This document shows positions 13,731 to 37,072 of a stretch of DNA of 53,603 bases, in pieces. Both the position numbers and the translations under genes were made by a program. Under the pieces are notes generated by a model that did not search any database, was not told where the DNA came from, and was given only the letters and a program-made list of their open reading frames with translations. The stretch lies in NCBI GenBank assembly GCA_049604715.1, contig JBMYTV010000003.1, positions 70,228 through 123,830 on the forward strand, written 5' to 3'. Within the stretch, counting starts at the first letter, position 1. Each line of letters begins with the position of its first letter. This stretch comes from Patescibacteria group bacterium. Lineage in GTDB: Bacteria > Patescibacteriota > Patescibacteriia > S139-126 > S139-133.

Positions 13731-14573
13731 TTATTTTAATGCAAAGAATTCTTTAGCCACAGCGGTTGTGGTCTCAGCTACCTCCTCAAAATGCACTCCT
13801 TTAAGATCTGCGACTTTTTCAGCTATAAAACGTACATACTGAGGCTCGTTGCGCGTACCTCGATGTGGCTCTGGCGCCAAAAAGGGCGCGTCAGTTTCTA
13901 CCATCAAACGATCCAGTGGAACATCTTTGATAAGAGCTTGTATGTCTTTTGCATTTTTGAACGTCACAATACCAGTGACTGACAACAAACACCCTAGATC
14001 CAAAAGCGTATGCGCTTGTTCTACGCTTCCACCAAAACAATGGATAACTGCTTTTGTATAACCACTATCTGCAATTGTTCTGATCACATCATCATACGCA
14101 TCATACGTTCCCTTACTAGGTCTGGTATGGACTGTTACAGGCAAACCTAACTCTTGTGCAAGCTCTAGCCCCTGCAAGAACGTCTGCTTTTGCTCATGTA
14201 TGACCTCTTCTCTTACGCGATCCTTGGGCATATGGAAATAATCAATACCCATCTCGCCTATACCAACCACTTTTTCATGTTTTGCCATCTCACGATATGC
14301 ATCAACCTGAAATCCTTCGCCCTTAGCATGAAATGCAAGCGATTGTTCTGGCTCATCAATATCCTGCTCGTGAATATGAATAGGGTGAAGGCCTATAATT
14401 GCATACACACCTTTTTTATATTGCTCAGCGATCTCTATTGCTCGGCGTGAGGTAGTGGCTTTTGTGCCAACATTTATAACCCACGTATCATCAGCAAGAC
14501 TCCGATCAAGCGCTTCTTTCCAATCATCTTTGTAGTCATGAAAATTCAAATGACAATGGGTATCAATCAACAT
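13731..14573 (-). CDS. tatD: TatD-family DNase
   Basis: IDTHCHL, GLHP, GEMGIDY, HCF, ETDAPFLAP. Confidence 0.95.
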   Translation of the reverse strand: MLIDTHCHLNFHDYKDDWKEALDRSLADDTWVINVGTKATTSRRAIEIAEQYKKGVYAIIGLHPIHIHEQDIDEPEQSLAFHAKGEGFQVDAYREMAKHEKVVGIGEMGIDYFHMPKDRVREEVIHEQKQTFLQGLELAQELGLPVTVHTRPSKGTYDAYDDVIRTIADSGYTKAVIHCFGGSVEQAHTLLDLGCLLSVTGIVTFKNAKDIQALIKDVPLDRLMVETDAPFLAPEPHRGTRNEPQYVRFIAEKVADLKGVHFEEVAETTTAVAKEFFALK

Positions 14574-33989: not shown

Positions 33990-35416
33990 AATGGTTTTTT
34001 ATTAACAATACTTGCGGGGTCAGTCTCCTGATCATACACAACCAAAGGATACTGCTCCCACTTTTGCACAACACGTTGAATAAACCTCCACGAACAATGC
34101 TCTTCCAAAGGCGTGCGAAATAACATTTGGTCTCCTTGCAAAGCTTTTGCAATAACATACTCATATGCACCAGGTAGCATTGTCTTTCGCATATCATCCG
34201 AATAGCGGTACTGCAATACATTTTCCTCCATCTCAGCACCAAACCCTGGCGCACGCGTCCAAAAGCTAATTCTCACTGCTTCATCAGGTTGAATCTCAAA
34301 GGTAAGTTTGTTTTGTAGCACACAGTCCATGCCACCCTCACACAGTGGATTGCTTGCGGGTTTAAAATATATTGAAATAGTTGCCTTTTTCTTAGACAAT
34401 CTTTTACCACTTTCCAAAATAAACTGCGTTCCTTTCCATCGCTTGTTATGAATTTTTGCTGATACACGGAAAAACGTTTCAGTCTGCGAGTTAGGATCAA
34501 TACCTTCTTCGCTGGTGTATCCCTTGTACTGCCCACGAACTGTAGGAATAGAGTCATCAAAACGAACCTTTTTGAGCACTTGCTCGCGCGCGTGCCTCAC
34601 CTGAGTAGCATGCAATTCACCAGGATGCTCCATAGTAATCAGTGAAAGCATTTGTAAAATGTGACTTTGTCCAACATCACGGAGCGCCCCTACACCATCA
34701 TAAAATGTCACACGACCCTCAAGCCCAAGCTGCTCATGTAGCTTAATCTCAACCCTTTCAATAAAACCACTATTCCAAAGGGGTTCAAATATGGCATTTG
34801 AAAATCGGAATAGCAAAATATTTTGAATTGTTTCTTTTGCTAAATAATGATCTATCAAAAATATCTGCTCTTTTTCAAATAACTTGTTAAGCTCCGTCTC
34901 CAAATGCATAGCAGAAGCCCTGTCTTTACCAAAAGGCTTTTCTATAAGCACTCGACTCCAACCTTCTTTGTCACTACACACTGATGCTGCACCTGAGTCT
35001 GATAAATTCCTCGCAATGACTTCATAAAACTTTGGAGGAGTTGCAAAGTAAAAAAATCTATTTACGCATGTTCCAAAATCTTGTGCCCTAGACTCGATCA
35101 AATCCACCAATTGCTTGAATGCACTAACATCATCAAATGTACCCTTGCTATATGATATATTTTGTAAAAAATTATCTATCACACTCGGTTCATGGTTATG
35201 GCCTTTTTCATCAAATATCCCCCGAACATAGTTTTGAAAATCTTCATCACCCCAATCACGCCGAGAAAACCCAATAATGTGAAATTGGTCAGGTAATATT
35301 TGTTTTGTGTGCAAATCCAGCAGAGCTGGAAATAATTTTTTCTTAGCAAGATCTCCAGTGGCACCAAAGATTACAAAAATAGTTGGCTGAATGGGACGAT
35401 CTGTATACTGTGGCAT
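33986..35416 (-). CDS. zwf: Glucose-6-phosphate 1-dehydrogenase
   Basis: GATGDLAKKK, EKPFG, IDHYLAKE, GALRDV. Confidence 0.95.
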   Translation of the reverse strand: MPQYTDRPIQPTIFVIFGATGDLAKKKLFPALLDLHTKQILPDQFHIIGFSRRDWGDEDFQNYVRGIFDEKGHNHEPSVIDNFLQNISYSKGTFDDVSAFKQLVDLIESRAQDFGTCVNRFFYFATPPKFYEVIARNLSDSGAASVCSDKEGWSRVLIEKPFGKDRASAMHLETELNKLFEKEQIFLIDHYLAKETIQNILLFRFSNAIFEPLWNSGFIERVEIKLHEQLGLEGRVTFYDGVGALRDVGQSHILQMLSLITMEHPGELHATQVRHAREQVLKKVRFDDSIPTVRGQYKGYTSEEGIDPNSQTETFFRVSAKIHNKRWKGTQFILESGKRLSKKKATISIYFKPASNPLCEGGMDCVLQNKLTFEIQPDEAVRISFWTRAPGFGAEMEENVLQYRYSDDMRKTMLPGAYEYVIAKALQGDQMLFRTPLEEHCSWRFIQRVVQKWEQYPLVVYDQETDPASIVNKKPL

Positions 35417-35482
35417 AGGCTATGTATTTATGTGTGTATTGTACCAAAAGCTGTTGTTTTAGGCGAATATAAATAAAAAGGG

Positions 35483-35511
35483 AAAATCCTGCGATTTGCA
35501 GGATTTTTTTT
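35483..35511. terminator. Intrinsic terminator after the small basic ORF
   Basis: AAAATCCTGC-5nt-GCAGGATTTT. Confidence 0.75.
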
Positions 35512-35542
35512 GGATTCCGGAGTGACTTACAGGTTGTTGCTA

Positions 35543-35728
35543 CTAAGGCTTGGTTCTTTTTAGCTTGGTAGTCTTTTTTCTACTTTGCTTTCTTCTTTCT
35601 TTTCTTTGGTTGTTGTCCTTTCTCTTAAAATACTCAATTTTCTTAATGCCTTCATCATTAGTAGTGATGCCAATACCTTTTACTGTTGTTACGCGACCGA
35701 TCAAAAATCGGCTGTTTTCATTTTTCAT
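35543..35728 (-). CDS. Small Lys/Arg-rich orphan protein (61 aa)
   Basis: SD GAGGAG 5 nt before ATG, own terminator, long structured leader. Confidence 0.65.
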   Translation of the reverse strand: MKNENSRFLIGRVTTVKGIGITTNDEGIKKIEYFKRKDNNQRKERRKQSRKKTTKLKRTKP

Positions 35729-35812
35729 AAAAACTCCTCATGAGTGGCTAATAGGTTTTCCTTAAAACACTCCGGATTGTGTTTATTTGTTTATTAAAGT
35801 GCTGCTAAGAGC

Positions 35813-35959
35813 AAATAAAAACTGCCCATCTCTGGCCAGCTTGTATCTGTTCTCTGCTCTAGACTTCTAACTGATACGCTGGCCATTTTTCACATGCAAG
35901 ATGCCGTATACAAACATACGATTCTTAATCAATGAAATTGTTGGCCAGTGATTTAACAT
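35813..35959 (-). promoter_or_regulatory. Putative leader-peptide attenuator (30-aa uORF 35959-35867 plus alternative stems and terminator)
   Basis: uORF MLNHWPTISLIKNRMFVYGILHVKNGQRIS; three TGGCCA-core segments; GAGA-loop hairpin followed by TTTTATTT. Confidence 0.6.
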
Positions 35960-35978
35960 ATTTATAAAATCCTTAGGT

Positions 35979-36020
35979 AGGATACACAAATGCACGTTTT
36001 TGGTCAAGGACTTATCCACA
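35979..36020 (-). promoter_or_regulatory. sigma70 promoter with adjacent perfect DnaA box
   Basis: TTGACC-17nt-TATCCT (TGn extended); TTATCCACA at 36012-36020. Confidence 0.65.
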
Positions 36021-36022
36021 AA

Positions 36023-37072
36023 CTAAATTGTCTGCATTACAACCCACACTAAATAAGCGACATAAAGCGCCACTAAGAATACCCCGGTTCGCCTACCTAT
36101 TTCCCAACGACGCATCAATAACAAGAACAAGATAACCAGCACAGTTGCAAATAACAAAAATATAGAGCTCAATAAGTTAGTTCTATCAATTTGCAAAATA
36201 TCTCCTCCAGAAAAGGCAAGCAAAATCAACCATGGCAACCCTAGGCCGATCAAGATATCAAAAATGTTTGACCCAATTGCATTACTTATAGCCATTCCCC
36301 CTCGACCTCGCCGCGCAGCAGCGACTGAAGAAAGTAAATCAGATATGGATGTGCCAATAGCAATAACAGTAAGCGCGATAATAACTTCGGGTATATCTAA
36401 GATATGCGCAATTTCAATGGCTGCCTCAACCAGCATCCAGCTCAAAAGCGCAATAAACACTATTGCTATAAAAAAATTTGTATAGTGATAAGTTTTTGAA
36501 AGAAAAACCCTATCAGCAACAGCATCGATCTGCTTATACACACGATCTACAAAATGATTCCCTTCTTCCTTACTAGACTCAACTTCGGTTACCTTATCTT
36601 CGTACCCAAATAACCGCTGCCAATGCAGAACGGCTATTACATAAACTATATAAACAAGTACATACCCAACGGCCTCAACGAGTGTAATCACTCCGTCTTG
36701 AAATGTAAACAACAAAATACCTACTGCAGCAATATAAAAAAATGAATCACGTATAACAGGCTGCCAACTGACCACTGCTCGCTGCACCATGGCAGAAATA
36801 CCTATGATCACTAAAATATTAAAAAGCGCTGAACCAACAATAGCACCGACACCTATGGCCTCGTGATCACCGGGCTTGAGTATTGCAATCAAAGCCACAA
36901 ACAACTCAGGTGCTGATGAGCCCATTGCCATCAGTGTAGCTCCAGCTGCTTCATATGATAATTTCCACTTTTCTGCTATTGCCTCTAAAGCCGGCACAAA
37001 ATAACCGTCAACAACACGGCTCATAACAACAAGGGTAGCTACAATCACTACTATAAGTGCGATGAGGGTCAT
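36023..37072 (-). CDS. Calcium/sodium antiporter (CaCA family)
   Basis: alpha repeats GATLMAMGSSAPEL...GSALFN and GTSISDL...GSNIFD. Confidence 0.93.
   Translation of the reverse strand: MTLIALIVVIVATLVVMSRVVDGYFVPALEAIAEKWKLSYEAAGATLMAMGSSAPELFVALIAILKPGDHEAIGVGAIVGSALFNILVIIGISAMVQRAVVSWQPVIRDSFFYIAAVGILLFTFQDGVITLVEAVGYVLVYIVYVIAVLHWQRLFGYEDKVTEVESSKEEGNHFVDRVYKQIDAVADRVFLSKTYHYTNFFIAIVFIALLSWMLVEAAIEIAHILDIPEVIIALTVIAIGTSISDLLSSVAAARRGRGGMAISNAIGSNIFDILIGLGLPWLILLAFSGGDILQIDRTNLLSSIFLLFATVLVILFLLLMRRWEIGRRTGVFLVALYVAYLVWVVMQTI

Follow-up and report, generated by a model that had tools for sequence, protein, structure and literature searches.

A candidate bistable transcription attenuator upstream of a small basic orphan open reading frame in a patescibacterial genome

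We analyzed a 53,603-nucleotide stretch of DNA (referred to as the window; C3:70228-123830) from the genome of an uncultivated ultra-small marine bacterium of the Patescibacteria (1.05 Mb in 24 contigs, 39.8% GC), and on its minus strand we found an intergenic element in which three RNA helices compete for shared sequence. The element occupies the 294-nt stretch between a gene for a CaCA-family exchanger and an orphan 61-codon open reading frame (ORF), and it includes a 30-codon upstream ORF (uORF) whose codons run over the helices. Folding models bear out the three-helix topology of an attenuator and show it to be energetically competent, and the element looks like a true bistable switch. We tentatively propose, at somewhat short of an even chance, that it is a bistable, ribosome-read transcription attenuator; for the wider claim that some conditional terminator is present at this locus, we put the chance at even or slightly better. 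Of the possible triggers, a ribosome translating the uORF fits best, as the layout of the element follows that of classical attenuators.

When the sequence, the ORF list, and the fold were re-read, all the elements which a sequence-only reading of this DNA had listed were located at their minus-strand coordinates, and constrained folding gave the 1:2, 2:3, and 3:4 helices which it had claimed as competent alternatives. Segment 1 (CUGGCCA, 35948-35942), which lies over the His-Trp-Pro codons of the uORF, pairs with segment 2 (UGGCCAG, 35885-35879) to form the core of a 112-nt rod-shaped hairpin (35972-35861), with predicted folding energies of -26.9 kcal/mol for the whole and -22.6 kcal/mol for the core. 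The rod encloses the Shine-Dalgarno sequence (SD), the AUG, and the stop codon of the uORF, and it sequesters segment 2 as an anti-antiterminator would. Segment 3 (GCUGGCCA, 35840-35833) offers segment 2 a second partner: in the predicted antiterminator helix 2:3 (35885-35833), UGGCCAGCGUAUC (35885-35873) pairs with GAUAC-AA-GCUGGCCA (35846-35833) through 13 base pairs and a 2-nt AA bulge, giving an isolated helix energy of -21.2 kcal/mol. Segment 3 is also the 5' arm of a putative intrinsic terminator (T1, 35857-35804), so that helix 2:3, by using this arm, excludes T1 in the manner of an antiterminator.

T1 was identified with our own hairpin finder and by folding. Its core stem (35842-35819; -11.0 kcal/mol) has nine pairs, one G.G mismatch, and a GAGA loop (GCUGGCCA-GAGA-UGGGCAGU) followed by UUUUAUUU, and in the extended stem (-21.8 kcal/mol) an A-rich run upstream of the core pairs with the U-tract (UUUUUAUUU, 35821-35813). 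T1 has, then, the GC-containing stem, the U-tract, and the position 5' of the putatively regulated ORF which are expected of the intrinsic terminator of an attenuator. The minimum-energy fold of 35975-35800 consists of the rod (35972-35861) and the terminator hairpin (35857-35804), and the base of the rod pairs the GGA, the AUG, and the UAG of the uORF. For 35975-35805, the minimum free energy was -49.0 kcal/mol as compared with -33.8 +/- 3.6 kcal/mol in shuffled sequences (z = -4.21), and none of 200 shuffles was as good.

The uORF (MLNHWPTISLIKNRMFVYGILHVKNGQRIS; 35959-35867) was taken from the ORF list and is preceded by AAGGA at 35974-35970. It overlaps segment 1, and its stop codon (35869-35867) lies 10 nt past segment 2, which is the placement expected of an attenuator leader peptide. 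In the mechanism which we propose, the RNA would adopt one of two mutually exclusive states, namely the rod (1:2) together with T1 (3:4), or an apical hairpin together with helix 2:3. Transcripts would arrive from the CaCA gene, from a weak promoter at 36007-35979, or from both. A ribosome pacing RNA polymerase as far as about codon 22 or the stop codon would cover segment 2, and T1 would form, with transcripts ending near 35815. A ribosome which is slow or stalled in the first ~21 codons, or which is absent, would leave segment 2 free to capture segment 3; T1 would then be blocked, and polymerase would read into the small ORF and stop at a second terminator (T2) beyond it. The early codons of the uORF (M L N H W P T I S L I K N R M F V Y G I L) contain no run of a single residue, so the signal would be general translation speed or charging and not one amino acid. 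The helices, their energies, their rarity within the genome, and the way in which the uORF lies across them were computed directly; translation of the uORF, termination at T1, and expression of the small ORF by read-through are what we infer.

Constrained folding reproduced the switch in both directions. When 35975-35930 was masked, mimicking a ribosome at the His-Trp-Pro codons, helix 2:3 formed and the terminator was lost; when 35885-35855 was masked, mimicking a ribosome at the stop codon, the terminator was restored. The sequence-only reading had expected early stalling to give 2:3 and full translation to give termination, and both expectations held in these models. We then moved a ribosome footprint through 32 positions (the 31 codons of the uORF including the stop, plus the next triplet) and found that 2:3 formed in 9 of the 11 earliest positions and that each of the 21 positions after those 11 gave the terminator, in a model which allows segments 1 and 2 to pair across an intervening ribosome, which is sterically unlikely. 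A ribosome anywhere up to about codon 21 would presumably leave segment 2 free.

A third expectation, that termination would also follow if there were no translation, is doubtful. In equilibrium folding of growing transcripts without a ribosome, the rod was stable until segment 3 emerged, and the probability of 2:3 was then 0.92-0.99 for 3' ends at 35833-35821, that is, before T1 is complete. This probability fell to about 0.5 for 3' ends at 35817-35813 and to 0 at 35808, and the rod with the terminator prevailed only upon completion of the extended stem at 35808. The models suggest that the absence of translation may give read-through rather than termination. Within the rod, all that holds GUAUC is a weak helix of A-U and G-U pairs on the far side of an 8-nt bulge, and strand invasion, with the GAUAC of segment 3 nucleating on GUAUC, therefore looks feasible. 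The firm prediction of the proposed mechanism is that termination is promoted by a ribosome which keeps pace with polymerase all the way through the uORF.

As a control, we collected all hairpins in the genome at least as stable as -8 kcal/mol which abut a T-rich run; this gave 1514 terminator-like hairpins, 1511 of them scorable. For each we calculated an antiterminator ddG, defined as the energy lost when the 5' arm of the terminator is barred from upstream pairing, and an anti-antiterminator ddG, defined by the same computation applied to the upstream partner. The locus scored 14.0 and 11.7 kcal/mol, respectively. Its antiterminator ddG ranked 20th of 1511 (genome-wide median 4.0, 95th percentile 10.8, 99th percentile 15.0 kcal/mol), and two of the 1511 hairpins attained both values. 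Outside long ORFs, 14.0 kcal/mol was attained by 5 of 404 hairpins. Under relaxed cut-offs (at least 10 and at least 8 kcal/mol), two of these 404 intergenic hairpins were retained: the locus and C7:1954-1998, which is the terminator of a T-box-like leader (C7:1833-1995; RF00230, 26.3 bits, E 0.0026, gathering score 93). From its translation, the ORF 3' of that leader looks like a class I aminoacyl-tRNA synthetase. One further high-ranking "terminator," at window position ~23159, was dropped as it lies inside a coding sequence. Ranking a genome's terminator-like hairpins by their competing upstream pairing energy may be a reusable piece of the analysis; here, the hairpins which it singled out were this locus and a T-box-like leader.

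The palindrome on which the helices are built was also unusual in its clustering. TGGCCA occurs 177 times in the genome as compared with 148.7 expected, and three copies within 120 nt (here, within 116 nt) are found nowhere else in its 1.05 Mb. When all 32 GC-rich palindromic hexamers were pooled, the genome contained four triple clusters of this kind.

Several observations weigh against the proposed attenuator, and most concern the uORF. An ATG ORF placed like it, from before the end of segment 1 to about segment 2, arose in 2137 of 20000 dinucleotide shuffles (10.7%), and the frequency rose to 22.3% if GTG and TTG starts were allowed. Its codon score (2.57) is ambiguous, lying between those of real 30-codon chunks (7.7 +/- 4.7) and spurious ORFs (-5.5 +/- 5.3). 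The gap between its AAGGA and its AUG is 10 nt, which is shared by 0 of the 46 AAGGA sequences found before 771 long ORFs (mode 6-7 nt), and the rod buries both the SD and the AUG in base pairs. Regulatory codons do not occur in a run, as the sequence-only reading had pointed out; His, Trp, and Pro each occur once in the early part of the uORF. Transcripts are expected to start about 7 nt past a -10 element. By this rule, the promoter-like TTGACC-17-TATCCT (36007-35979; 9 of 12 consensus matches) would give a start near 35972, which is also where pairing in the rod begins and places the 5' end in or just after the AAGGA. This promoter had been proposed earlier: the sequence is present, but sites of its kind are no more frequent than in shuffles (3 in 1.6 kb, versus 5.5 +/- 2.6). 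T1, with its G.G mismatch, was not listed by a consensus terminator scan. The rarity statistic is rough, as it recovered one of the three T-box-like leaders of the genome, the other two (C6:44068-44237 and C3:48339-48527) scoring just 2.4 and 0.0 kcal/mol.

Conservation counts on the same side. The element had no DNA relative in 40 other related genomes. A covariance model built from the single sequence and run on 151 genomes of the class and 5 of the family or order gave, at best, E 0.03 and 0.13 per genome; the match at 0.03 aligned to the terminator part alone, and these matches are chance-level terminator look-alikes. Around CaCA homologues in metagenomes (80 loci, 43-57% identity), there was no match to the element or to the uORF, the small ORF, or zwf (best blastn E 0.11), and two exact 21-mer probes were absent from viral contigs. 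As no relatives were found in the genomes and metagenomes searched, covariation and uORF conservation give no evidence for the attenuator.

Within its own genome, the element matched itself plus 12-17-nt chance words only (blastn-short). A scan of genome contigs for the triple-palindrome pattern returned at least 120 stretches (median GC 0.69), none of them element-like among the matches listed, and these appear from their sequence to be chance occurrences in GC-rich genomes. Rfam at the gathering score identified two tRNAs only in the whole window. At E <= 10, the only Rfam hit within 35729-36020 was OppA_thermometer (11.8 bits against a cut-off of 290, E 1.4), which is at chance level, and the T-box family RF00230 had no match at E <= 10 in 35400-36200. 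Hits to Phe_leader (25.2 bits, cut-off 55), OrzO-P (23.4 bits, cut-off 60), and ncr1575 fall at T2 on the plus strand and were set aside as terminator look-alikes. The downstream gene zwf was located in two of nine genomes of the order, and in one of these (G002) the contig ends ~130 nt 5' of zwf.

The ORF which would be regulated (35728-35543, minus strand; 61 aa) has GAGGAG at 35739-35734, 5 nt before its ATG, and this spacing is the genome mode (AGGAG gaps of 5-6 nt in 24 of 44 cases). Its codon score of 6.84 is nearer to real chunks (15.6 +/- 8.4) than to spurious ones (-11.2 +/- 9.6). From T1 to this ORF, no promoter-like site came up on the minus strand, either in a scan or in our reading of the sequence. 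The product contains 21 Lys and Arg and 6 Asp and Glu residues, with 15 of the Lys and Arg among the last 28 residues, and its pI is 11.1, which agrees with its earlier description as a small basic orphan. No credible family was found in Pfam, PHROGs, or NCBIfam (best NCBIfam 0.11; PADLOC was not included). A 5.8-billion word search matched only the ORF itself, and viral contigs contained nothing like it. Searching 401 genomes of the class in six frames gave a best non-self E of 0.0059, through the Lys/Arg-rich tail and with stop codons in many of the matches. HMMER against 1.84 billion representatives returned the ORF itself plus a 2635-aa repeat protein which we judged spurious, and the Atlas yielded no usable feature match or nameable structural match. 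With no relatives in the databases searched and a poor structure model (pLDDT 0.44), the ORF may not be a gene, which would also count against the attenuator. The idea that its product replaces an absent hibernation factor was ruled out, as the genome has a PF02482 homologue. Antisense to the ORF lies a 71-codon, Leu/Phe-rich and very hydrophobic ORF (35550-35765, plus strand; codon score -7.25), most likely, to judge from its sequence, a mirror artefact of the AAA/AAG codons.

An ordinary gene end is the main rival and a real possibility, if a less likely one. T1 would then be the terminator of the CaCA gene, the rod a stabilizing hairpin of its 3' untranslated region, and 2:3 a by-product of a shared octamer (CUGGCCAG), with the small ORF either expressed from an unrecognized promoter or not a gene. 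The genome-wide hairpin finder placed no terminator between the CaCA stop codon (36023) and T1, so CaCA transcripts should enter the element and T1 serves CaCA regardless. A gene end would also accommodate a promoter-like site at chance level, a uORF placement which is a 1-in-10 event, and an element, a uORF, and a small ORF which are all unconserved. Moreover, CUGGCCAG is its own reverse complement, so stems sharing it cross-pair. However, the complementarity of segments 2 and 3 exceeds the palindrome, continuing through GUAUC/GAUAC to make up the 13 pairs and -21.2 kcal/mol, and the triple TGGCCA cluster is unique in the genome. Among the 404 intergenic hairpins at relaxed cut-offs, only the T-box-like leader shows an equal two-level competition; the two states are nearly isoenergetic exactly at the termination decision point; and the downstream ORF has modal SD spacing and its own terminator. 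The position of T1 bears on both sides. It begins 181 nt past the CaCA stop, a distance which argues weakly against a plain CaCA terminator (188 of 561 hairpins downstream of ORF ends lie within 0-49 nt), but 34% of these hairpins are as far out as T1 or farther, which favors the gene end over the attenuator.

The same helices could be read by a protein, which we consider improbable. Naked RNA would default to 2:3 and read-through, and the 61-aa product or another RNA-binding protein would stabilize the rod, free segment 3 for T1, and so repress its own synthesis in the manner of the ribosomal-protein leaders of Bacillus. The predominance of 2:3 without a ribosome (92-99%) would make a rod stabilizer an effective off-switch, the composition of the product (pI 11.1, basic C-terminal end) would suit RNA binding, and the weakly supported uORF would not be needed. 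There is also a precedent for protein-promoted termination in a leader, reported for L10(L12)4 and rplJL (PMC4538822). On the other hand, the binding is hypothetical and would be by a family-less protein with a poor structure model, no Rfam ribosomal-protein leader matches the element, and the rod forms first in transcription, an order which is itself deduced, so that the default may be termination.

An independent small RNA (sRNA) of ~160 nt, running from the start at ~35972 to T1 and composed of the rod and the terminator, has a slim chance of being the better description. Such an RNA, possibly encoding the 30-aa peptide, would act in trans. Its predicted start is the first paired base of the rod, and two strong hairpins with a U-tract are the usual sRNA shape; Sinorhizobium reportedly offers an example of an sRNA and a peptide which derive from an attenuator (peTrpL; PMC7298713). 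Against it stand the chance-level promoter and the lack of an Rfam family and of homologues, and the strong 2:3 alternative would be left unexplained. This explanation overlaps with the proposed attenuator, as terminated leader transcripts can double as sRNAs.

Elaborating the attenuator itself, one may picture a sensor of general translation speed which, when ribosomes lag behind polymerase, induces the lineage-specific and extremely basic 61-aa protein (net charge about +15) as a new small ribosome- or nucleic-acid-binding stress factor of an ultra-small symbiotic bacterium, with possible feedback by rod binding and a persisting ~160-nt leader sRNA. We regard this as a long shot; if true, it would be a self-contained de novo regulatory module of sensor, effector, and feedback, arisen from sequence which is in no other searched genome.

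Two further explanations do not fare well. It is very improbable that the TGGCCA palindromes are operators at which a protein binds the DNA, perhaps in concert with the DnaA box described below: their triple cluster is unique in the genome and the box lies nearby, but the palindrome centres, 63 and about 46 bp apart, do not share one helical phase, the long imperfect hairpins with their many extra pairs fit RNA, and the DnaA box is at chance level. A type I toxin-antitoxin pair, in which the uORF peptide would be a toxin whose SD is hidden by the mRNA fold, is hardly credible: the SD and AUG are indeed sequestered in a long 5'-3' helix, and the opposite strand has promoter-like sites at 35941-35970, but these antisense matches are at chance level, the peptide does not resemble a membrane peptide (GRAVY 0.01, with no hydrophobic run longer than 7 residues), and Rfam placed no toxin or antitoxin RNA in 35729-36020, its OrzO-P hit being at T2 on the opposite strand.

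The DnaA box (TTATCCACA; 36012-36020, plus strand) had been remarked upon for its closeness to the promoter-like site. It is indeed a perfect match to the 9-mer, but it is a lone and chance-level one. Perfect boxes number 21 in the genome as compared with 11.9 expected, and within ~500 nt the only near-matches are relaxed ones at 35886 and 36534. The box is probably incidental. The densest group of DnaA boxes in the genome is at C2:7476 and 7880 (404 nt apart), with a third at 14353, and it is possible that this group marks the replication origin.

The mechanism class of the proposed attenuator is well known, and the element is an unconserved singleton within it. The attenuators of trpL, hisL, and pheL have the 1:2, 2:3, and 3:4 topology, a uORF over segment 1 with a stop codon whose ribosome masks segment 2, and a U-tract terminator. 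The present element shares the helix topology, the placement of uORF and stop, and the U-tract terminator with these classical leaders, and it differs from them in that the uORF has no run of cognate codons and the target is not a biosynthetic operon. The sequence-only reading had suggested an antibiotic as a possible signal. The target gene gives this no support, being an orphan with no Pfam, PHROGs, or NCBIfam family, and unlike in the antibiotic-responsive leaders (erm, bmrB, vmlR, and msrD), the regulated gene is no recognizable resistance determinant. Codons 12-14 of the uORF (K-N-R) resemble the +x+ macrolide arrest motif.

By analogy, the closest known systems appear to be bmrB-bmrCD and toiL, two leaders which read translation status without an amino-acid signature. 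As reported, bmrB-bmrCD of Bacillus subtilis has a leader ORF and three alternative stem-loops including an intrinsic terminator, its induction needs translation of the leader, and it resembles our proposed attenuator in responding to impaired translation with no single amino acid named there as the signal (PMC4191407). In that account, the leader ORF contains the terminator, and what is regulated is a multidrug ABC transporter (PMC4191407), whereas the present uORF stops short of segment 3, the target is a basic orphan ORF of 61 aa, the two have no sequence similarity, and our element is known from its sequence alone. The toiL uORF 5' of topAI-yjhQ in E. coli is described as a multipurpose sensor in which stalls at various positions remodel the downstream RNA (PMC12121999), and the likeness would lie in a sensory uORF which answers general translation stress. 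The L10(L12)4/rplJL leader of B. subtilis is reportedly likewise a structured leader with a terminator before the gene of a basic RNA-binding protein (PMC4538822), and the parallel would extend to feedback through a product which stabilizes one of the folds; it differs in that the present product is no recognizable ribosomal protein and the rod binding is hypothetical.

A literature search within the library available found no paper on transcription attenuation in Candidate Phyla Radiation bacteria or Patescibacteria. If the proposed attenuator is real, it would be a further textbook case of ribosome-coupled attenuation, here in the Patescibacteria, and it would make translation status govern how far a small basic protein, young and lineage-specific, is expressed. 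The interest of the find is reduced by its being a singleton of a familiar mechanism class in an uncultivated organism, to which heterologous assays alone are applicable.

The surroundings of the element are consistent with a small transcription unit. Of sequencing runs, the only one listed as containing this DNA is a DNA run labelled seawater metagenome, which may be the source sample, and no RNA run is listed. On the minus strand, the order is the CaCA exchanger gene (37072-36023), the 294-nt stretch, the 61-codon ORF, T2 (35507-35483), zwf, and a 6-phosphogluconate-dehydrogenase-like gene. T2, a strong terminator, was placed by the terminator scan; its 10-bp stem is perfect and leads into a U-rich tail, and it ends the small-ORF unit, with zwf next. 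An extended -10 element (TGGTACAAT) lies 5' of zwf within 35416-35483 of the window, and a similar one (TGTTACAAT) lies 5' of zwf in the related genome G002. T2 and zwf's own extended -10 would place the small ORF in a transcription unit which is closed off from zwf. In both genomes, the extended -10 before zwf is preceded by a terminator, and these sequences suggest that sigma-70-like extended -10 promoters are in use in the family.

The upstream gene encodes a 349-aa CaCA-family Na+/Ca2+ exchanger membrane protein (Pfam PF01699, E 9.1e-52). It is ~29% identical to the copies in two genomes of the same family, from which the whole neighborhood would be lineage-specific. The genome has two CaCA paralogues, this one and C14:11432-12421, with 28% mutual identity. 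The copy in the window is 43-57% identical to its 80 metagenome homologues as compared with ~29% within the family, and on this sequence evidence it may have been acquired from elsewhere. Across the whole genome, palindromic hexamers are skewed: GACGTC, GGGCCC, CCTAGG, GTCGAC, and GAATTC occur at 0.29-0.37 of expectation and CAGCTG at 3.0 times expectation, which hints at avoidance of restriction-modification sites.

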